This document shows positions 28,411 to 56,029 of a stretch of 64,000 bases of DNA, in pieces. The stretch is from positions 7,076,099 to 7,140,098 of the forward strand of contig NC_057752.1 in the NCBI RefSeq assembly GCF_004010195.1, in the 5' to 3' direction. This stretch comes from Chiloscyllium plagiosum. Its lineage: Eukaryota. The number at the start of each line of letters is the position of its first letter. Positions within the stretch are counted from its first letter, which is position 1. Under the pieces are notes generated by a model, which searched no databases, was not told the DNA's origin, and worked only from the letters and a program-made list of their open reading frames with translations. The translations under genes were made by a program, and so were the position numbers.

Positions 28411-30626
28411 GTAGGAGCAATCCAGGGTAATAAACAGTAGGACCAAACTGACATGGTTCATAGTTCACTCTTAGCTGCAAAAAGTAAACATGAAAACTGA
28501 GTAAAGGAAACAGTAATCTGGGTTTCTGTTATGTCAGTTCTGAAAGGCCCATATTCAAACTCTTCATGGGAAAAGTATGAATAAAAACTTGCATTTATAT
28601 AGCACCCTCAATGTCTTAAAACTTCCTAAGGCACTTCATATTAGTGTTATCAAACAAGTTGATGCCAAGCCACTGGGAAAACAACTAAACAGTTGGTCAA
28701 AGGTTTCAAAGAGCAGCTTGCAGGAAATAAGGGGTTAAGAGAGGTTGGGGGGAAGAATTTCACTGCTAAGGAGTAAATCACGATCATTAGTGAGGTGAAA
28801 ATTGGGTATGCATAAGAGCACAGAGATCTTGAAGTCTTATAAGACTGGAAGAAATTATAGAGATAGGGTGGGATAAGACCCTGGATTTGAAAGCAAGGAT
28901 AGGACTTTTAAAATTTTAGGTTTTACTGGACTGGCAGCCAATGTAAATAAACCAGCATGGGGTGATGAGTGAACAAGACTTAGCATGAGTTAAGATAGGG
29001 GCAACAGAGGTTTGAATTAACTCAAGTTTATGAAGGATTGCAGACTTGGCAGGAAAGCATTAGAAATAGTTGATTTTGGAGGTAACCATGATATGGATGA
29101 AAATTTCAGCAGCAGATGAGCTAAGGCTGGGGCAGACATGAGTAGTGTTATAGATGTAGAAGTAACAGGTGGTCTTGGTGATGGATTAGATATAGGGAAT
29201 TTATCTTCTAGAATATTGAAGCATTAGCTTTATTTATCTCCAAAACTAGAAATACCACTAAGTGAGAAGGAATTTCTTCTCTCCAAGGGTCACTGGTCTT
29301 TGGAATTCTCTTTTCACATAGTGTGCTGGAGGTTGGGTCATTGAATGAGTTAGACAGATTTTTGATCAACGAGGGAATAAAGGGTTATGGAGGACAGGCA
29401 GGAAAGCAGAGTTAAGGCTACTATCAGATTATTCATGATCTTTTTGAATGGAGAAGCAACCTCAAGGGGCCAAATGGTTTACTCTTGTTCCTATTTAAAT
29501 TGTTTGGAGGCACAATCAAAGTCATAAGGTCAAACTATTGTGCAACATGTTTGTGTAAGGGTGCAGTTTATTGTCTCAGCAACGGTGATCTGTTTCTGGG
29601 TTTTAAATATATATAGCTATCTTTTTTACTGGTTAAATATTGTAATGTGATGTAGCCAAACTCAGTCCTGTTCGAATCAAGCTATTTTTGTTGAGGTTCT
29701 CCCATTCACTGATACAGTAACCAACGTTTTTGATGGCAAGGAAAGCACTCTAGTAACATTATATCACAATGATTGCAAATAAAGTCTTTCAACCAGTGGA
29801 AGCACAATTTGAATGTGATTTGTCAAAATTTGTCTGCCTGTCTTTCTTTTCCTTCTCCTTCCAAATAAAAGTAAATGGACAGTTTTAGTTCACTGCACAC
29901 TAGGTAGCTTGGTTAGGGAACTGGCCTGCTGAAATACGTTTAAATAACTAGTAATTTGAGGTAATTTCCAAACAACACATTGACTGAGAACACTAGCACA
30001 GCATTAATTTTGCTGGATGAGTAATTGAGAAGGCTGGATTTATGATCCAGAGACAGGAGTTCAGTTACCAAATCAGCAACTGGTGAACTTAAGTCCAGTC
30101 AATAAATAAACCCAGAATTAGAAAGCTAGTATTCACGATCGTGAAACTACTGGATTGTTGTGAAATCCATGTGGTTCACTGAAGTTCTTTAGGGAAAGAA
30201 ATTTGCTGACCTCACCTGGCTTGACCAACATGTGACTCAGACCCACAGTAATGTGGTAATGTCCACTGTGATGGCTGAGCAAGCCACTCTGTTTGGAGCA
30301 ATTATGGATGGATAATGAATGCCAGTCTTGCCAGTGATGCCCACATCCTGTGGATAAATAACAAAAAGCTTGACTACTAAAGAAAGGCGTTATTTGATGT
30401 GAAAAACTCTATCTATACTAAATATGGATATTAAAAGCTTTATTTCTTCAATAATTTTCTGTCAATATTCGTACAACCTAGTTTTTTAAAAGGATTGAAT
30501 TTAGAATATTAGCAAGTTAAGGTATGTTTATTGAATACTCAAGTTAAATTGAAATTCAAAATTTGCTTTCTACTACATCTGACAAATAATTTGGACTTTA
30601 GAACTATGTTTTAATCTTTTTCATAG

Positions 30627-31274
30627 GAAATACAGCTCCTCCTCAGCCACCAACAGTTGAACCTGTTGCTGTATCAACTCTACTGCCTGATTCCCCAGTA
30701 CCGCCTTCTGAGCAGCAGACAATCATAATATTCCCCAGTTCTCCAGGAGATCCTATTCCAGTTCCTTCATCTACCATCAGTCCTGTAACCCTTGACTCTG
30801 ATGATGCAATAAATGCAGCAATCACTGTCTCAGAACAAGCTATAAATGTAGCAACCCCTGTCTCTGATGAAGCTATAAATGCGGCAACCCCTGTCTCTGA
30901 TGATGCAAGCAATGCAGCAACCCCTGTCTCTGGTGACGCAATAAATGCAGCAACCCCTATCTCTGATGATGCAATTAATGCAGCAATCGCTATCTCAGAA
31001 CAAGCTATAAATGCAACAACCCCTGCCTCTGATGAAGCTATAAATGCGGCAACCCTTGTCTCCGATGATGCAATAAATGCAGCAACCCCTGTCTCTGATG
31101 ACGCAATAAATGCAGCAATCGCTGACTCAGAACAAGCTATAAATGCGGCAACCCCTGTCACTGATGAAGCTATAAATGCGGCAACTCCTGTCACTGATGA
31201 AGCTATAAACTCAACAACCCCTCCCTCTGATGAAGACATAACTGCAGCAATCACTGTTTCAGACCAATCAACCA
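30627..31274 (+). CDS. PMEL: PMEL exon 7 (RPT domain, 14 x 11-aa repeat)
   Basis: tttttcatag| acceptor, 648-nt open frame without an ATG start (missed by the ORF track), |gtaagt donor; phase 1-1. Confidence 0.9.
30797..31258 (+). repeat. 33-bp coding minisatellite, 14 units, consensus SD(D/E)AINAATPV
   Basis: Units read directly from the sequence, e.g. tctgatgaagctataaatgcggcaacccctgtc. Confidence 0.95.
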
Positions 31275-31653
31275 GTAAGTCTTACACTATTTTTGGAGAT
31301 ATTTAATTGCTTAGAAAACCTAAAATGCAAATTCTTGAGTAAATCTGAATCTCATGCTCCACTGAGCAATATTAACCAACTGATGTAAATCAATATCATA
31401 AATTTGTTGAAATTATGTTTTTGTATAGTCCAATCATACTGTGTGATATAACTGGAAACTGGAAATTTGGAGATCTGAATTTACTGCAACTTAGGGTTTC
31501 TTTCTTAATCCATATTGAAAATACTTGCAGTATTGTTTTATACTCTTGAAATACTCTGAAATCTTCAACAACATAATCACAACATGTAAATGCCTGAAGG
31601 CAATTGCCATGTCATCAATTTACCAGCTGTGTTTTTCATAATTGAATCTACAG

Positions 31654-41512: not shown

Positions 41513-41675
41513 GAAGTATAAGGAATATGCTCCCTTGCAGCAAAACCCTTCGAGGATTCACTCTGAGTGGATCCCGGACAGGGCTGCCGTGAACATTTTC
41601 CTAAGAAATATGTTCGGTCGTCAAAGGAGTAAAGTCAGCGAGAACAGCCCTTTGCTACATGGGTGTGTTGTCTGA
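41513..41675 (+). CDS. PMEL: PMEL exon 12 (cytoplasmic tail, stop)
   Basis: KYKEYAPLQQNPSRIHSEWIPDRAAVNIFLRNMFGRQRSKVSENSPLLHGCVV*; ENSPLL acidic dileucine motif. Confidence 0.95.
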
Positions 41676-45665: not shown

Positions 45666-46069
45666 CTGATGTGGTCAGTTTGACGATAAGATGCAGTGCT
45701 GGGGAACCTGTGAACCCAGAAAGTGTTCCCATCCTAATAGAATGAGGGTAGAACATTTTTAGAAGAATACTTTCACTCCACATAGTTGCAAACGCACCCT
45801 TCGCTGTGCTACATAGTTGAGCCTTTTATGAGTTATATCAGCTCTATATGCTAATGAGCTTTTCAAAGAAATGACAAATTCTAGTCATCTATTAAATAAC
45901 GTATTGCTCAGGAATCCCTCTCCTTTATAACAGGATGCAAAAATCAGAATTATATCAATCAAAAAGCACAAATCATTGTGTTTTATGAAGTATAACTCTC
46001 GGTTTTCATTGAATTGACTTTTAGACATATTTTCAAGTTCGACACACACTTTCCTTCATTATTCTTTAG

Positions 46070-48300
46070 TGGACCAACTCTTTCTCTGGTTACCCTCTTG
46101 CTTCTTATATATGAATAAAAGGCCTTGGGAATTCTCCTTAATTCTGCTCACTAAAGTTATTTCATGATCCCTTTTAGCCCGCTTGATTCTTCATTTAAGA
46201 TTGGTCCTACTCCCGTGATATTTCTCCAAGGCCCGTTCTGTTTTTAGCTGCCTGGACCTTATGTACGCTTCCATTTCCTCTTGGCTAGTCGCACGATTTC
46301 TCCTGTCATTCACGGTTCATGAATCTTGCCTTTCCTATCCCTTATTTTCAAAGGGACATGCCTACCCTGCACTATCTTCAACCTATCTATGAAAGCCTCC
46401 CACATATCAAATGTGGACTTCCTTTCAAATAGTTGCCCCAAATCCACATTTCCCAGCTACTGCCGAATTTTGATATAATTGATCTTGGCCCAGTTTAGTA
46501 CTCTTCCCTTAGGACCATTCTCACCTTTGTCTACAAGTATTTTAAAACTTACAGAATTGTGGTCACTATTCCCAAAGAAATCCCCCAGTGCAACTTCTAC
46601 CAACTGGGCTGGCTCATTCCCCAACACCAGGTCCAATATGGCCCCTTCCCTAGTTGGACTATTGACATACTGCTCTAGAAACCTTTCCTAGATGCTCCTT
46701 ACAAATTCTGCCCCATCCAGACCTCTGACACTAAGTGTATCCCAGTCAATGTTGGGAAAATTAAAACCTCCCATCACTACCGCCCTGTTGCCTCTACATC
46801 TTTCCATAATCTGTTTACCTATTTGTTCTTCTACCTCACACTCACTTATTTGTTCTTCTACCTCACACTCACTGTTGGGAGGCTTGTAGTACAGCCCCAA
46901 CAATGTAACTGAACCCTTCTTTTTTCTCAACTCTATCCATAATGCCTCACTGCTCAAGCCCTTCAGAGTATCCTCCTTTAGCACAGCCGTGATATCATCC
47001 CTGACCAGCAATGCAACTCCTCCCCACCTTTTACTTCCCTCCTTGTCCTGCTTGAGGCATCCATATCCTGGAACATTTAGTTGCCAATCATGCCCTTCCT
47101 TCAACCAAGTGTCTGTGATGGCAATAATGTCATTCTCCCAGGCACCAATCCAAGCCCTAAGTTCATCTGCCTTACCCACTATACTCCTTGCATTAAAATA
47201 TATGCACTTCAGACCACCAGTTCCTTTGTGTTCATCTGCTCTCTGCCTACTCTTCCCCTTGGTAATGCTAACTTCATGAGCCTTACAGTCTCTAGTTTCC
47301 ACCTCACTGTCTACTAGTCTTCTCTTCTGGTTCCCAGCCCCTTGCTACATTAGTTTAAACTCTCCCCAACAGCAGTGGCAAAAACTCCTCCAAGGACATT
47401 AGTTCCAGTCTAGTTCAGGAGTAGACCATCCGATTTGTAATAGCCCCACCTTCCCCAGAACCGGTCCCAATGTCCCACAAATCTGAACCCCTCCCACCTA
47501 CACCATCCCTCAAGCCACGTGTTCATCCTGCCTAATCTTTCATTTCTACCCTGGCTAACACGTGGCACTGGTAGTAATCCTGAGATCATTATCTTTGAGG
47601 TCCTCCTCTTTAAATTCTCTCCTAGCTCCCTGAATTCTGCTTTCAGGACCTCATCTCATTTTTTACTTATATCATTGGTCCCTATATGCACCACAACAAC
47701 TGGTTGTTCACCACCACCGCCCCTCCAAAACGGTATACCTGTTTTGGAGGGAGATGACCGCAGGGGACACCTGCACTGCCTTCCTACTCTTTCTCTGCCT
47801 TTTGGTCACCCATTCACTGTCCCCCTCAGCAATTCTAATCTGCGGTGTAACCAGTGCACTAAACGTGCTATCTATGAGCTCCTCAGCATCACGGATGCTC
47901 CACAGTGAGTCCATCCGCAGCTCCAGAGCCGTCATGCGGTCAAACAAGAGCTTCAGCTGGACACATTTCTTGCAAGTGTAAGAGCCAGGGACGTCAGCCA
48001 CGTCCCTGAGCTCCCACATCAGGCAAGAGGCACATGCCGCAGGTCTGAGGTCCCCTGCCATTGTAAGCATTAGCTTTAACTCAACTAACTAAAACCAAAC
48101 AATGCACTTAAATATATGAGAAAAGAAAAAAACCTTACCTTACACAGTCCTTTTCTTCTGGTTAGGTTGGGGGAAGGGAGATACTACATGTGTAGTATCT
48201 CGGGTTTAGCCACTGCCCAAGTACATACTAAGTCCTTAGCTTCCCGGCAACCTCCTGGTCTCCAACGTCACCTCAGCTCTGTCTCCCGCTGCTCCCGGAT
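46070..48300 (-). mobile_element. CR1 LINE 5' portion (ORF1 zinc finger/coiled coil + AP endonuclease)
   Basis: CASCLMWELRD...YTCKKCVQLKLL (ORF1); CIYFNARSIVGKADEL...IIAITDTWL...GGGVALLV-like...FNFPNIDW (APE). Confidence 0.9.
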
Positions 48301-48669
48301 GATAATCATGCTTGATTATTTCCAAATGACCCTCCAGGTTCACATACAATGAAAAGGCAAGCAGAACAGTTAGATCAGGCTATGAATTCATTGACACAGA
48401 AATGGCTCAAATATAGACTGATGCTCACTGAGCTATTTCAATACTAAGTAGTCAAGTTAAGTAACAAATGTAATTTTTGAGTTGGGTCACAGATTAGATA
48501 AGTAAAATTATAGGTAGTGGAATGTCCCTTTCAAGTTAAATAACAGCTCTTTTGGACACTGAAAGCAACACTGGTCAACTGAACAGCATGCTGGGAATTG
48601 GATCAGGCCAGACAGACAGATATGCAAACTGTTCAGCAGGCCTGTCAGCAATATGGAAAGAAATCAGAG

Positions 48670-49052
48670 CTGCATCAAGCTGAGCGATGACCCTCAGTAC
48701 ACAAACACCAACTGTCACTATGTACAGAGGTTCCACCTTTTTCCAGTGTTATGGAGGATGGGTCTGGCCTCAGCACTGTGGAACATTCCAAGTAGTTGGA
48801 CTGTCTCATATCACAGTCCTTTGTGGAGAAATTTGTAAAGGAAAACACCTTTGACCACAAGCCCACCAGAAAGTGGTCAGGACGCACTATCCTCGAGACC
48901 CTCCGGGAAAAGGAAGCAGTTGAGTTTGTCGGGTGGTTCGCTGAAGTAAGACTGTCAAAGTCATTTGGCAGAGTGCCTCATCACCAGAACTTTCTAACAA
49001 GCACCAAGATGTAGCTTGGCTGGTGGTGAAAAGGGCACTAACTGTGAGATCC
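48670..49052 (+). mobile_element. Tx1/L1-like LINE ORF2, left part (interrupted by the R2-type insertion)
   Basis: Ends ...KHQDVAWLVVKRALTVRS, which precedes the CCHC knuckle found after 53578. Confidence 0.75.
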
Positions 49053-49153
49053 TTAGCTTTAACTCAATTAACTTATTTGGTTGGTTGGTCTCCCAACGGT
49101 GCCTGTGTAGTCACCTTTGCAATCGTTTCTATGTATCTTATCAGTTGCAAAGT

Positions 49154-49392
49154 TGGTCGAACCTCCACGTGGTTCCCCCTGGAAACGACCTGTGAGAGGA
49201 AGCTCAATAACAGAGGAGTGGTTTTAACTTGTTTAAGAGGTTATATTGCCATGGATTTATCATTGGTTTTATCACTGATTTTATCATTGGTTTTACCTTT
49301 GGTTTTATCCAGTGCTGTATAGCCACTGACAGTTTTAACATTCTCTTTCTGTTGCATAAGCATTACTCTATTCAGGTCGGCTAATACGACCA
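49154..49392 (+). ncRNA. HDV-like self-cleaving ribozyme core (R2 5' UTR)
   Basis: P2 tggtcg(49154-59)/cgacca(49387-92); P3 acc/ggt with L3 tccacgt; P1 3' strand tccccct; P1.1 gg; P4 cgacctg(49186-92)/caggtcg(49373-79); J4/2 gctaata. Confidence 0.85.
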
Positions 49393-49446
49393 GAGAAAAG
49401 ATATGAGGCAGCTGGTGACCTATCGGTCAATGTTAGAAACCTATTT

Positions 49447-52400
49447 TTGGCAGCGGCGATTATGTTGAATTCCAAAATTTCTGATTGGGTGGGAAACCAG
49501 GAAAATAACTGCCCCGCAAGGTTGTTATTGGCGACACCGTGTGCTAAATGTGTTAGCCAAACAAGGACTAGACTATCCATTTCTATGCAAACTGAAGAGA
49601 CCATAATAGTCACTTCGGCACGGCTGCCCTCTGGCAGGCACGAGGAAGCTGGTAGTAAAGTCCAGAGGACTCAGGATCAAGTTCAAATTGAAGGATTCAT
49701 TGAGAAGACCCCTCTAGAATAATCTTGTTCTTTTAATAGCCGGACAATTTTTAGTTCAAATTTTAAAGGGCCCTTTGATTTTAGTCAAATTGGAGAACCA
49801 GAGAGCAATAAAGAGAAAAGTGAGAGTAGGATTATTCATCCTGTTGTTAATGAGAAAGATAAAATAGAAATAATAATAGAATATCCATTAGATAATTTTA
49901 TACGTAAATTTTGTAATAACATTTATAATACGACGGGAATGTTTAGAAAACATTTAAAATTGTGTAAAGGAATTAAAGCTGTGAGAGTTAAATGTAGTAA
50001 ATGCGGCTGGGAGGGTAGTTACCACTCAATCGTGTGTCACTACCCTAAATGTAATAGTAATATAAAAGAGAGGGAAGAAGGTAAATCAGTCCAATGTGAA
50101 ATTTGCCCGATTAGATTTACAACAGCTATAGGTTTAGGACAGCACGAGAGGCACGTGCACCCTAATTTGAGAAATGCTAAAAGAAATAAAGAAAAAAAAG
50201 GTAATTTGGAAAAAGTAGAGAAAGGTAAAAGAGGAGTGTGGTCCAACTCCAAAATAAAAATGTTACAACAATTAGAACAGGAATTTATAGGTTGTAAAAA
50301 TATTAATAAACTTATCGCTGAAAAATTGAAAACTAAGACGTCAAAACAAATTTCCAATAAAAGAAGATTGTTAGTTAAACATAATAAGATTAGCGATAAA
50401 GTTGAGGGCACAAGTCAGGAAGTAGTTCCCATTAATGATAATAGAAGTGAAGAGAATAGTGATCTAGATTTAGATACTCCAATAGAGGAGATAGTAATAG
50501 ATGAGTGTAACCATCAAGGAAATAATAATATTAATGGGAATGGAGAAACTAAAGATGGATCATTAATAGAATTAGTAGACATGATGAAGGACAAAATAAG
50601 GAAAAGCAAATGTATAATAAATGACTATGACAACATTATGGATATGATAATTGGTAAATTAGGGACCAAGGATAAGAGCAATAGGTCAAAGAAATTGAAA
50701 TATAAAAAGGGATTAATTACTAAGCAGAAGGATAGTAGACAAGAAGGTAAGACGAGGGTAAATAATGCTAAAAGAAGATATAGTAGGGAAAAAGGAAAGT
50801 TTAAAGAAACACAGGTTTTATATAAGAATAAAAGACAATATTTAGCTAGAACTATGATGGGAGCTCCAGCTAAATGCGAATGTCCGCTTAGCAAGGAGGA
50901 ATTGGAGGATTATTTTAAAAATAGATTATCTAATCCTAATGATAAAAGTAATTTGAGAGGTTTTGTCAAATATAAAGGTCAAATTGAGGGATCAATGTGT
51001 GACATGCTGACCGGCCCTATAACGGTAGAGGACGTCAATCAGGCCATTAAGGCGATGGACTTTAAAACTGTGGCGGGGCCGGATCAGATGACGCTTAAAG
51101 AAGTGATTAGAATATTTAATAAAGATAATACGATAATCCTCAGAATTTATACCATTTGGTTGAAAACAGGCAGTATCCCTGATATAGTAAAAATAAATAG
51201 AGCAGTATTAATCCCCAAAGTTAGTGATGAGGTTGGGTTAAAGGATTGGAGACCCATCACAATAGGTCCAATTTTGCTTAGGCTTTTAACGAAAATTATA
51301 GCTAATAGGTTAAGTAAAGTTATAAATTTAAATAAACGGCAAAAAGGTTTTATGGCAGGAGTAGCAGGTTGTGAAGAGAACATTAACATTTTGGAGAATA
51401 TCATTAATGGAGCTAAGAAAAAGAAAATCGACACAAATTGATAATAAATGCCCTGAAGAGAACTCAACTCCCTCCAGTTTTTATTAAATTAATTATGAGC
51501 TTATACAATAATAATTTTACTAGGATCGAAGGTTTTAATTGTAAAGCAAATAAGATCAAAATTTTAAGAGGGGTTAAACAAGTACTATTGAAGAAACGAA
51601 AAAAGGAATATTTTTGGGTCAAGATAAAGAGAGTTATCATTGTGTAACCTTAGCGTTTGCCGATGATATAGCTTTGATCAGCCAATCCTATGAAGGAATG
51701 GCATACAATTTAAAACTGATAGAAAAACTTTGTAATAATACTGGGATAGAGGTTAATGTAAGAAAAACAAAAGGATTCTACTTTGCTTATAAAAATAAAA
51801 TTTATAATGATAGGGCAAATTGGAAATTTAATGAGGGAAATATACAGTTTATAGATCCAGGAAGCACCGATAAATACCTTGGTACAAAAATTGATCCATG
51901 GATTGGGGTAAGCCAATTGAACTGGGAAGACCAATTAGGTATTTGGATAGATAATCTTAAAGGATCTCTTTTAAAACCTGTACAGAAATTGGAACTCTTT
52001 AAAGTGTATTTTATCCCTAGACGTTATTACTATTTAATTTTATCGGAAGTATCATTAAACTATCTTAATAAACTAGATAATATAATTAAAAGTGCAGTAA
52101 AAGAAATATTACATCTCCCACAATCCATCACAGATGGGTTTTTATATACTAAGACCCGTGATGGTGGCCTTGCGTTGAATAAACTGTCTACATTTATTCC
52201 AATTACTATTTTAAGGAAATATGAAATGCTATACAAATCCGAGGATGAAATTTTACATGCCTCATTTTCATTCGAGGGTGTTAGTATCGATACAAAAATG
52301 CAATAACTTAGTAAATTGAAAGTTTTAGAGAAGATTTAGAATCCAAATATAAATTGACAATTGGAAGAAATGGATATCACTCATGAGGAGAATTATGGTA

Positions 52401-53170
52401 TAGAGGAATTTAGTAATAAGAACGATACCAACTGGAGGTCTATAGAACTTCAGAAATGGATGGCCTTGCCCTGTCAAGGGGCGGGCATCCATTACTTCAA
52501 GAACGATAATTTCTCCAATAATTGGTTGACAAAAATTCAATATATGAAGATGTCCAAAGTAATAAATTCAATTTTATTATGAACGAACTTATATCCTACA
52601 AGGGCGTCTCTAGCTTATGGAAGGTCATTTAACATCAAGAATTGTCGGCGATGCAATGATAACTCAGAAACGATTGCGCATATTTCAGGATGGTGTCCCT
52701 ATGCAAAACATATGAGGATTAAGAGACACAATAGAATAATGGAAGAACTAATAAAGTTTATCAAGATAAAAGGATGGATAACATACGTGGAGCCACGCAT
52801 AAAAGATAACACTGGGAAATTATGGATACCAGATTTTTGGATACCAGATTTAATTTTTAAGAAGGAAAATCATGTTATCGTGGTAGACGTAACGATTAGA
52901 ATGGACATGCAAATTAACTCACTGGAACAGGCTTGGGAAGAAAAGAAAGAAAAATATAAACATCTAGAAAAGGAAATAATGGTCCTTACAAAAGGAACAA
53001 GAATATCCTTTTATGGATTTGTGATGGGATCCCGAGGAAAATGGTTTGAAAAGAACAATTAACTAATGAAAGACCTCGGGATTGAGAAATTTAAAACTTT
53101 TGTTCAAAATATCACACATCTTGTGCTATCTTTGACTCTCGAGCTTTTAAGGATTTTTATGGACTCATAG
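49447..53170 (+). pseudogene. Disrupted R2 polyprotein ORF
   Basis: Collinear fragments 49447-49722, 49939-51441, 51438-51647, 51614-52306, 52361-52582, 52712-53062; final ...RIFMDS* at 53170; stops, frameshifts and two RT deletions. Confidence 0.88.
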
Positions 53171-53577
53171 GATTCTCCATTTGACAGAATTTAATAATTT
53201 TTAATTTTAGATTATTTTAAATAAGGTTTTAGGTTAATTTTAAACTAGTATTAATTTTAAATTAGTATTTTATGATTTTAATATTTTATTAGTAAAAGTA
53301 AATTATTTTAAGTCATTGATTATGGGTGGTGGGTAATATTGGTGTAATATAATTAAAGTGCACGCAACACATAAGAAATGATGAGCGGTAATATAATCGA
53401 ACGGTTGAAAAACCCAGCTCATTCCTCGCTTTATTGATGATTCTGGTTTACAACATTTTATCCTGTTCCTTTTAAGATCATCTGGCTGTGGTTAGCTAGA
53501 TAGGGGTATACTTTTGTTGACGAGCGATGATAAAACTCGAAAAGGACATGATCCATTCATATGGTGAGTGCATGAAA

Positions 53578-54218
53578 TATGCCCAGCATATGCTGCCCTC
53601 AAACCAGTTGCGGGGTGTGTGGGGGGGTAGAGACTGTCACACATCTCCTGTTAGAATGTGCCTTTGCAAAGGAAGTCTAGAGAAAAATGCAGTGGTTTTT
53701 GTCAAGGTTCATCTGGAGCATGATGAGTCGTGATGCAGGACTCCATGCTCTGCAGTCTGTTCCCCAGGATGCACCCCGAGACAAACATCAATTGCACCTG
53801 GAAGACCATCAAATCAGTGAAAGACACTCTTTGGTCTGCCCAAAGCTTGTTGGTCTTCCAGTGCAAAGAGCTGACCTCAACTGAGTGTTACAGACTGGCA
53901 CATTCCAAGGTCCAGGACCACGTGCTGAGGGATGTACAAAAGCTTGGGGAAGCTGCTGCTGACGCGCAGTGGAGAAAGACCACCACCTAAGGTCTTTCTG
54001 CCAAAGTTAAATGGGGTCCGTTCAACTGTAAAGTGCTCGCGTTGTCTCAAATGTAAATGTAAATAGTGTCCTACATAGGTAAGAAATGTCTTTGACCGTT
54101 GCAACCGTCAGATCCAACTTATGTTTTTCTTGACGTGCAAAGACTATATGGAATTGCTGTAGTAGCTGTGTGTGTACAAAATTTTTTTAATTAATAAAGT
54201 CTATTTTTGCAATTAAAA
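53578..54218 (+). mobile_element. Tx1/L1-like LINE ORF2 C-terminus and 3' UTR, right part
   Basis: CPQTSCG...ETVTHLLLEC knuckle; WKTIKSVKDTLWSAQSLLVFQCKELTSTECYRLAHSKVQD (same family as 2566-3019); aataaa at 54193. Confidence 0.85.
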
Positions 54219-54379
54219 GTTACAGAGATGAACAGATTGGCAAATTAACTAGGAGCAATGTTACGAAATGTTTGAATACACTGTGCCTGAAAGGGCAACT
54301 GAAGTAAAATATAGAATAACTTTGAAAAGCAAACTGCATAGAAACTTAAAGGGACAAAACTTCGTAGGCTACAGTAAAC

Positions 54380-55820
54380 AAGATTTGGAGGTGCCGGTGT
54401 TGGACCGAGGTGTACAAAGTTAAAAATCACACAATACCAGGTTATAGTCCAACAGGTTCATTTGGAAGCACTAGATTCTGTCAATCCATTTTTAGATGAG
54501 AATCAGTCTGCCCATTGTGGCACTGACAGTCTCACACAGGGCAGCTCACACCTTAAATGCATTATCTGGGTCGACATGGCACCAATTGTTAAAGTTCACT
54601 TGAGAATGTAACTTTGAAATGTTCTGGAATTTACATATGAAAGAACTGAAACCAACATGTTCATTCTAAAAGATTAAAAATCACACAACACCAGGTTATA
54701 GCCCAACAGGTTTAATTGGAAGCACACAAGCTTTCGGAGCGTCGCTCCTTCATCAGGTGATAGTGGAGGGCTCAATCCTAACACACAGAATTTATAGCAA
54801 ACATTTACAGTGTGATGTAACTGAAATTATACATTGAAAAATTGATTGTCTGTTAAGTCTTTCATCTGGTTGAATGCCACGATTAAAAATCACACAATGC
54901 CACTTCTTTCATGTGTAAATCACAAAACCTTTTTTAAAAAGTTGCATTCTCAGGTTAGATGTTAACAATGGTGATAGCTAGACAATATGTTGAAGGTGTT
55001 AGCCCCCTGTGTTCTCTGTCTATGCCATGATGTTTAGATTGATTCTAATCTAAAAAGTGAGATAACGGAGTTTTACATTAATTCATGCAGTTTTTGAGCA
55101 AAGTACAATGTAACCCTGCAAGTACAAATTCACCCCACAAAATATATTTGCGCATGTGGGTCTTTGTCTGTGTGTCTGTCTGGGTTGGGGGGGGTCGTGA
55201 GTGTGAGAAAGTGTATGTGTGTGTGTGTAGTAAGTGTTGAGTGTCTTAAATCTGTGACGGGGTGCATGTGTGAGTGTGTGTGTCTGTAAGGGTGTGTGTG
55301 GGTGTCTGTGTGCGCATCTGTGTGTCCTTGTGTGTGTGTATAGGAGTGTCTGTGTGTATGTGAGAGTGTGTGTGTGTAGGGGTGTCTGTGTATGGGTGTA
55401 TAGTGCAATGGTGGTCACATCAGTTCAGTTTTATCACACTCTAAATTTTTGCTATAAATTCTGTGTGTTAGGATTGAGCCCTCCACTATCACCTGATGAA
55501 GGAGCAAAGCTCCAAAAGCTACTGTGCTTCCAATTAAACCTGTTGGACTATAACTTGGTGTTGTGTGATTTTTAACTTTGTACACTCCAGTCCACGACCG
55601 GCATCTCCAAATCATTCTAAAAGATGAGAGACTTAACAAATAATCCAGGTCTTTTTCAATATATCATTTCAGTTGCATCACACAGTAAACTTTCACTATA
55701 AATTCTGTGTCTTATGATATTATACTCCACAACCACCTGAAGAAGTAGCGCTCCGAAAGCTAATGCTTCCAAATAAACCTGTTGAACTGTAACCTGGCGT
55801 TGTGTAATTTTTAACTTTGT
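54380..55820. mobile_element. Penelope-derived composite (direct and inverted pseudo-LTRs around a TG-rich tract)
   Basis: Repeated ttaaaaatcacac..accaggttatag in both orientations; hammerhead-like cores at ~54724-54760(-), ~55490 and ~55735(+). Confidence 0.7.
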
Positions 55821-56029
55821 AGTAAACAAGGGAATGAGATTAATTGGACATCGTTTTCAGAGACTTAGGACAGGGAGGATGGTCAAAATGCTCTCCTATA
55901 TCTGAATCCTTCTATCAACTGATTACATATTTCGTACCTCTGAATAACAACAGCAGATACTGCACATAGCAACATGTTTACAATTTAAGGAGACTCCGGG
56001 ACCCGCCTAAACGGACAAATTCAGCTGAC

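Follow-up and report, generated by a model that had tools for sequence, protein, structure and literature searches.

The window, i.e., the whole stretch of 64,000 nucleotides of the bamboo shark Chiloscyllium plagiosum that was analyzed (contig NC_057752.1), harbors a complete PMEL gene of 12 exons on the plus strand (7748-41672). It includes a repeat exon rich in proline, alanine and threonine (approximately 30626-31294), and one of its exons shows 94% identity to a Hemiscyllium protein. Located 7.4 kb downstream and likewise on the plus strand is an element that is identifiable as a dead, nearly full-length copy of an R2 retrotransposon of lineage A (49073-53577), whose ends were defined by alignment to sister copies. 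Compared with these, it lacks the first 18-19 nt or so of the family leader. A preceding sequence-only reading had placed its start at 49053, but 49053-49054 are target DNA and 49055-49072 are filler. Coding remnants are spread over three plus-strand ORF fragments. The first (49723-51441) carries three zinc fingers, a Myb-like segment and the start of the reverse transcriptase (RT). These three Cys/His motifs and the Myb-like segment were recognized by eye, while Pfam gave one weak C2H2 match (E 0.021), none for Myb, and RVT_1 at E 8.7e-5, both matches lying under the cut-off. The remainder of the RT follows in the second fragment (51578-52306; RVT_1 E 2.3e-6, again under the cut-off), and the third (52583-53062) comprises a CCHC knuckle (zf-RVT, E 0.001) and a restriction-like endonuclease motif, the latter seen by eye.

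The assignment to lineage A is made via L118, a relative from the same genome that is nearly intact and with which the window fragments cluster in a protein tree. Its single ORF of 1196 amino acids combines the RT with a C-terminal restriction-like endonuclease and is closest to R2 proteins (E 5.6e-187 to R2Tg and 1.3e-65 to the R2Bm-length chain 8gh6, versus 1e-28 to LINE-1). L118 itself (G000:C20) is an off-target copy of the youngest subfamily, in which the G-run and approximately 12 nt of target are gone, apparently via microhomology. A search of the shark's own genome with the 5' region yielded at least 43 matches from 40 scored of 99 candidates, and all copy counts given here are lower bounds. 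The 45 matches to a 3'-end pattern are not a copy number, as most of the newly fetched ones contained no element. RNA reads over one non-rDNA copy numbered 9 and 0, without a 5'-end signal.

At its 5' end, the window copy encodes a predicted HDV-like ribozyme that extends to 49392, and of which only the leader is missing. It had initially been read as ending at 49182, but P4, the J4/2 C at 49381 and the P2 3' strand all lie beyond this point. The 3' strand of a first J1/2 helix, gtagtcac, is present, yet one base further on than first placed (49107-49114); its partner in the family is GTGACTAC of the leader, so that it is orphaned here. A second J1/2 hairpin (49115-49152) is followed by the P2 5' strand (49154-49159, pairing with 49387-49392), P3 with L3 (acc tccacgt ggt, 49161-49173; 95% of cells paired) and the P1 3' strand tccccct, which indeed occupies 49174-49180 as proposed. 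The P1.1 GG (49181-49182) pairs with the L3 CC in 94% of cells. P4 (49186-49379) joins 49186-49192 with 49373-49379 around a loop of approximately 180 nt, and J4/2 together with the P2 3' strand (49387-49392) completes the structure (49380-49392). The C at 49381, presumed to be catalytic by analogy with HDV-like ribozymes, is conserved in 33 of 35 copies including that of the window.

Alignment of the family accommodates the nested double pseudoknot of P1, P1.1, P2, P3 and P4. Across 35 aligned copies, the 44 named pairs are formed in 90.6% of cells, compared with 25-44% in controls slid by one to three columns, and two-sided changes occur in 60 cells versus 22.6 +/- 4.8 after shuffling, a test that is inflated by the relatedness of the copies. 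Such changes were found in P2, in P4 (3/7 pairs) and in both J1/2 helices (6/11 pairs of the second hairpin), while none occur in P1 within the family. The first J1/2 helix is paired in 92% of cells, and the outer P2 pair alternates between the two A-U orientations (20 and 11 copies). The predicted fold hence exceeds chance. Rfam returned no ribozyme match; the only Rfam match within 46000-56000, SNORD74 (E 0.13), is below threshold and was taken as chance.

As had been noted from the sequence, tccccct has no good upstream partner in the window copy: the best 7-mer in 48850-49160 forms 5/7 pairs, and within the kilobase upstream no candidate exceeds 6/7, a value reached three times at a distance of about 1 kb, inside another repeat. 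An alternative local P1, which would have overturned this view, was sought, but P1 is unformed in the predicted fold of the window copy. In the fold of a sister with intact leader, P1 forms with a probability of 0.94-1.0 at 6/7 positions. Most sister copies start with a G-run and the leader (GGGGGGA-TGTGACTACAG), and do so at unrelated flanks. P1' was readable in 41 cases (44 leader-motif loci, counted one per place, of which one was unparsed and two lacked a readable P1'). With their own P1', 14 of these copies form all seven pairs of P1 and 26 form at least six. Of 51 rows of 5' junctions, 39 were retained as non-redundant, and a run of at least four G precedes the leader in 26 of these; the closest relatives of the window copy (L002, L013, L010 and L003) all carry the G-run at non-28S sites.

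Two origins of the gap had been proposed, namely that the source element used upstream 28S rRNA as its P1 5' strand or that it encoded a G-run of its own that was lost in this copy. The proposed alignment of 5' ends speaks for the latter, as it recovered TCCCCCT together with an element-encoded G-run, while TCCCGCT, the complement expected of a ribozyme that depends on 28S GGCGGGA for cleavage at -28, is found in none of the 41 copies. For TCCCCCT, the duplex with GGGGGGA (-12.6 kcal/mol) is also more stable than that with GGCGGGA of 28S (-8.4 kcal/mol). Similarly, the imperfect pairing of gtagtcac with 28S that had been considered (GTAACTAT, -2.7 kcal/mol) falls far behind that with GTGACTAC of the element (-10.4 kcal/mol). 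The leader of the sisters and the preference of both duplexes for element strands indicate that the source carried its own P1, which the window copy has lost. Judged from sequence, the missing strand is a loss specific to this copy and not a family trait.

In place of the leader, the window copy has an 18-nt filler (49055-49072, plus strand) that is bordered by microhomology, TT at one end and T at the other. It is identical at 17/18 positions to 48072-48089, 1 kb upstream on the plus strand; the chance of such a match within 1.1 kb is approximately 2e-6, and a 15-mer common to both occurs nowhere else in the window. This segment, or another copy of the same repeat, is the likely template. It is the end of a neighboring minus-strand LINE, which we take to be CR1-like by the look of its ORFs. 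The gap is an ordinary 5' truncation. On the target side, the break coincides to the base with that of the intact copy L013, in agreement with a loss of the leader at insertion. Such a loss is likely, while a later repair may have acted instead and would be indistinguishable from it. Selection against cleavage of a host pre-mRNA was considered for PMEL only and ruled out, because its last exon ends at 41672, 7.4 kb upstream.

The insertion site of the window copy can be recognized as a mimic of the 28S target within an L1/Tx1-like LINE. Comparison with empty sites in other copies of this LINE defines its upstream half (49025-49054, plus strand), and the LINE resumes the empty-site sequence downstream (53578-54020, plus strand) past an inferred loss of 4 nt; AAGG is also lost at several 28S junctions. 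Of 32 compared positions, 19 match 28S. The host LINE is abundant (1823 candidates), and its ORF shows RT and zinc-knuckle-like motifs by eye. The spacing T-6 T n A n n T+1, reported for R2Bm in the available part of PMC10499050, occurs in three of the six empty LINE sites shown. The same LINE site is occupied by four family copies (the window copy, L240/L102, L104 and L118). These are independent insertions, since their flanks are only 70-79% alike and they belong to different subfamilies or are no closer to each other than to other sisters. Even with 100,000 host copies, the chance of four such hits would be approximately 4e-12. That the window copy and L013/L240 stem from one duplicated insertion was ruled out, because the flanking host sequences are no more than 73-77% alike, with the likeness confined to the LINE. 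Copies of a second R2 family (L267 and L277) are also found at the LINE mimic site, and three others (L269, L274 and L279) have one upstream flank in common that derives from another repeat and constitutes a second hot spot.

Beyond this site, TAG follows the element at 16 of 29 non-28S 3' junctions (2.6 expected) and TAGC at 11 of them (0.4 expected). Part of the TAG excess may stem from the RNA's 3' end, as is reported for R2Tg off-targets in the accessible text of PMC12222951. Upstream flanks of off-target copies are weakly 28S-like, with 9.0 versus 7.9 +/- 0.3 matches of 20 (n=27, including three from the same LINE site; 2/29 loci were unparsed). An excess of TT upstream (12/27) is in part an artefact of G stripping, and a per-position target logo of 11 joined sites was uninformative because the 5' deletions vary.

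The family as a whole is also present at the canonical 28S site. Seven loci (L111, L119, L120, L121, L122, L132 and L138) have 28S on both sides. The G-run is intact at 7/11 28S junctions and not at the other 4/11; these 11 of the 39 junctions represent no frequency, as many were found with a 28S-junction query. An exact leader pattern matched the assembly 36 times, compared with two matches for a control, and 34 of the 36 are accompanied by a recognizable ribozyme core. Four of them follow 28S, six follow another R2 in tandem and 26 lie elsewhere. A DNA tree of 45 copies does not separate those in 28S from those elsewhere but intermingles them, and the youngest subfamily comprises a copy in 28S (L132) as well as another at the LINE site (L118). 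None of the ten copies in the clade of the window is 28S-flanked, so that this subfamily might have had sources outside rDNA.

The second R2 family of the same genome, readable at 28 of 30 loci, mostly has a P1' of the CCCGCY type and carries a 28S leader from -28 at 21 readable loci, while long 28S surrounds only 1/28. An exact TCCCGCY-core pattern had no match, as it was too tight: this P1' type goes along with another P3. Hence, a 28S-type P1 is no bar to dispersal, and conversely the G-run copies at the canonical 28S site imply that a P1 strand of its own does not mean that an element has departed from rDNA. The two origins proposed for the gap consequently do not separate off-target insertion from true retargeting, as had been expected of them. 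With its 28S insertions and target motif, the G-run family also differs from R2NS elements, which are defined by having neither.

Six loci on short contigs (L029, L131, L165, L171, L172 and L231) are head-to-tail R2 tandems in which a partial leader comes after the 3' end of one copy and a full leader after that, with L231 terminating in 28S; these are possibly template jumps that were afterwards amplified in rDNA. In the 28S genes L067 and L068, no more than approximately 60 nt from the R2 3' end occupy the R2 site, and the 28S sequence beyond is diverged. At the 28S junctions of L072, L073 and L075, approximately 20 nt of target are deleted back to a GTAA that resembles the leader, which suggests that residual homology between leader and target guides some joins. 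L123/L233 and L124, outside rDNA, have only approximately 100 nt of upstream or 76 nt of downstream 28S, as would result either if they had inserted into short fragments of 28S or if an rDNA source had passed on some of its 28S. Ten loci on contig C8 and small contigs (L128, L129, L135, L136, L141, L142, L228, L229, L248 and L259) have one 3' flank in common but different 5' extents and likely represent one insertion that was amplified with a tandem cluster and then variously deleted. Finally, 5' ends are longer in a subfamily of the second family (L276, L278, L280, L282, L284-L286, L288, L289 and L292), where repeated 28S-like pieces separate the core from the 28S leader in a way that resembles the extension route of Fig. 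8b-c in the part of PMC3774820 at hand.

Several observations point to a 28S origin of the G-run leader itself. It equals 28S from -28 to -12 at 12/17 positions if one extra T is allowed, and 6/7 of the bases after P1 are identical to 28S (p ~0.004). In the oldest subfamily, the off-target copy L299 reads GTGACTATG, 8/9 of which equal 28S (chance ~3e-4). The helix partners in this subfamily (L298 and L299) are CATAGTTRC, that of L298 being fully complementary to 28S; this apparent intermediate is represented by two decayed copies, one of them without ribozyme core. Differences between leader and 28S are matched by changes of the partner strands in two helices. A midpoint-rooted protein tree (28 rows) unites the family in a single clade (100/100), within which P0121 of C. 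punctatum nests. Its sister clade comprises the second R2 family and catshark proteins (98/96), inside a shark clade (100/99). Among 12 chondrichthyan rows of Table S2 in PMC13188248, seven show a ribozyme core by eye, though these elements are outside the tree; in the portion available, P1' is of the CGCY type in SCa, HSa, STig-1 and CMi, a C-run in the distant element STig-2, and TCCCCCT in CPl and CPu, which belong to the window family. According to the accessible part of PMC3774820, -28 is the most common R2 cleavage site and is also predicted for the R2 of zebra finch. The paired leader changes, the intermediate state of the oldest subfamily and the 28S-type sister lineages together argue that the leader likely descends from 28S -28 to -12 and that the G-run state is likely derived from a 28S-dependent one. 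As two-sided P1 changes do not occur within the family, the P1 switch would have to lie between families. The ancestral 28S dependence suggested by the sequence-only reading thus probably holds one level deeper, in the origin of the leader, while the gap itself is specific to the window copy.

Taken together, it appears highly probable that this shark R2 family has its own G-run P1 strand with predicted self-cleavage at the first G, and that the window copy lost this leader, likely while inserting off-target at a 28S mimic. In this scenario, an ancestor would have cleaved at 28S -28, with GGCGGGA as P1 strand and the following 28S bases in the J1/2 helix. A duplicate of this 28S stretch may then have joined the element and changed together with its partners, P1 from GGCGGGA:TCCCGCY to GGGGGGA:TCCCCCY and the J1/2 helix from GTAACTATG:CATAGTTAC to GTGACTAC:GTAGTCAC, which would have shifted cleavage to the element's 5' end. 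Source copies likely remained in rDNA and were transcribed by read-through, while the protein presumably also nicked look-alike sites. A cDNA end without 28S homology would be joined via microhomology, giving variable 5' junctions; in the window copy, this step would have cost approximately 18 nt and added the 18-nt templated filler. The course of events follows a published model, given in the available text of PMC3774820, in which duplicated 28S and a compensatory P1' change shift cleavage to the end of the element. The same source ties such cleavage to variable 5' junctions, which are also seen in the G-run family.

Other explanations have to be weighed against this. That the source lacked a P1 strand and relied on GGCGGGA of 28S instead, so that the window copy would be complete and only look truncated outside rDNA, is contradicted by the alignments of the copies and exceedingly improbable. 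GGCGGGA does still pair with TCCCCCT at 6/7 positions, and the 28S junctions without intact G-run might fall back on it, but the closest relatives carry the G-run away from 28S, P1' is never TCCCGCT, and the window copy lacks leader bases that its sisters have and is devoid of any 28S. A G-run leader that arose independently of 28S, for example by non-templated addition of G, with a likeness due to chance and to a constraint for a GC-rich P1, must be considered very unlikely. As many R2s have a G-rich P1 strand, the first seven leader matches weigh little, and the alignment requires a one-base insertion; however, the match to 28S continues over the seven to nine bases past P1, and the L298 helix partner is perfectly complementary to 28S.

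More thought is due to the idea that the autonomous leader freed one subfamily, including that of the window, from rDNA, with dispersed sources copied from host read-through transcripts and thus a partial true retargeting. A self-contained ribozyme would excise from any transcript, the clade of the window is devoid of 28S-flanked copies, and few exact leader matches follow 28S. Nevertheless, this remains unlikely, given that the 28S-type family is just as dispersed and autonomy is thus unnecessary for dispersal, that the off-target sites of the window clade retain 28S-like features and that the youngest subfamily resides in rDNA. In addition, rDNA arrays are likely under-assembled and old subfamilies are purged there, which likewise counts against an escape from rDNA. 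A bolder version, in which the fossils record a stepwise capture of P1 (GGCGGGA-GTAACTATG to GGGGGGA-T-GTGACTATG to GGGGGGA-T-GTGACTACA) and the self-contained ribozyme let the window subfamily propagate outside rDNA with the LINE mimic as second home, is a doubtful prospect at present. If true, it would represent retargeting in progress, with an abundant L1/Tx1 LINE site adopted beside 28S.

The G-run family can be compared with known systems. R2-1_CPu and R2-1_CPl, bamboo-shark R2s of lineage A in Table S2 of PMC13188248, belong to the same family. By eye, the visible parts of the ORF and of the 5' sequence of R2-1_CPl agree with L132/L064, and R2-1_CPu has the same G-run leader and TCCCCCT directly after 28S, whereas the window copy is of an older subfamily, broken and outside rDNA. 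The available part of that table assigns the G-run of CPu to upstream 28S and lists a CPl copy that is itself without G-run; ribozyme and dispersed copies are not analyzed in the portion at hand. A parallel is provided by R2 B and C of Ciona intestinalis (model of Figure 8d-e, PMC3774820), for which the accessible text proposes cleavage at the 5' end, P1 from duplicated 28S and a compensatory P1'. In the vertebrate-hosted shark family, the change would have gone further, involving P1 and the J1/2 helix, and fossil copies retain an apparent intermediate. The R2Tg element of zebra finch (PDB 9dou), like further lineage-A R2s of vertebrates, has the RT and endonuclease in common with the shark family and also, going by motifs seen by eye in the latter, three zinc fingers and Myb. 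The 28S nick site of R2Tg is the same, and its off-target sites keep target-like bases according to the excerpt of PMC12222951, as in the shark. Yet, R2Tg has a predicted -28 cleavage and is highly specific in cells, while the shark family supplies the P1 strand from its own sequence and has left off-target copies in the germline by the dozen.

Rare non-28S insertions of R2 (PMC10499050) and loss of specificity (PMC5035012) were already known from the parts of these papers available, the latter describing R2NS-1_SMed and R2NS-1_CSi as R2-clade elements that lie outside rDNA like the window copy. R2NS elements have lost specificity, whereas canonical 28S insertions still occur in the shark family, whose stray sites are mimics of 28S. 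In the literature covered, to which subscription journals and Repbase did not belong, no paper on the ribozyme or the dispersed copies of the G-run family was found, and sharks are unmentioned in the accessible part of PMC13580325. New here are the leader of probable 28S origin, for which an apparent intermediate is seen, and the parallel view of two contrasting R2 families.

These findings imply that the 5' ends of catalogued bamboo-shark R2s were likely drawn a few bases short, and that the type of ribozyme is no basis for regarding an R2 as retargeted. In a single genome, an R2 family with a 28S-type P1 coexists with a related one that brings its own P1 strand, and both have dated off-target copies of which some occupy the same mimic site. 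The 2013 model of cleavage-site movement can thus be tested in a vertebrate, and 5' junctions that arose with 28S homology can be compared in a natural setting with those that arose without it, a comparison relevant to R2-based gene insertion.
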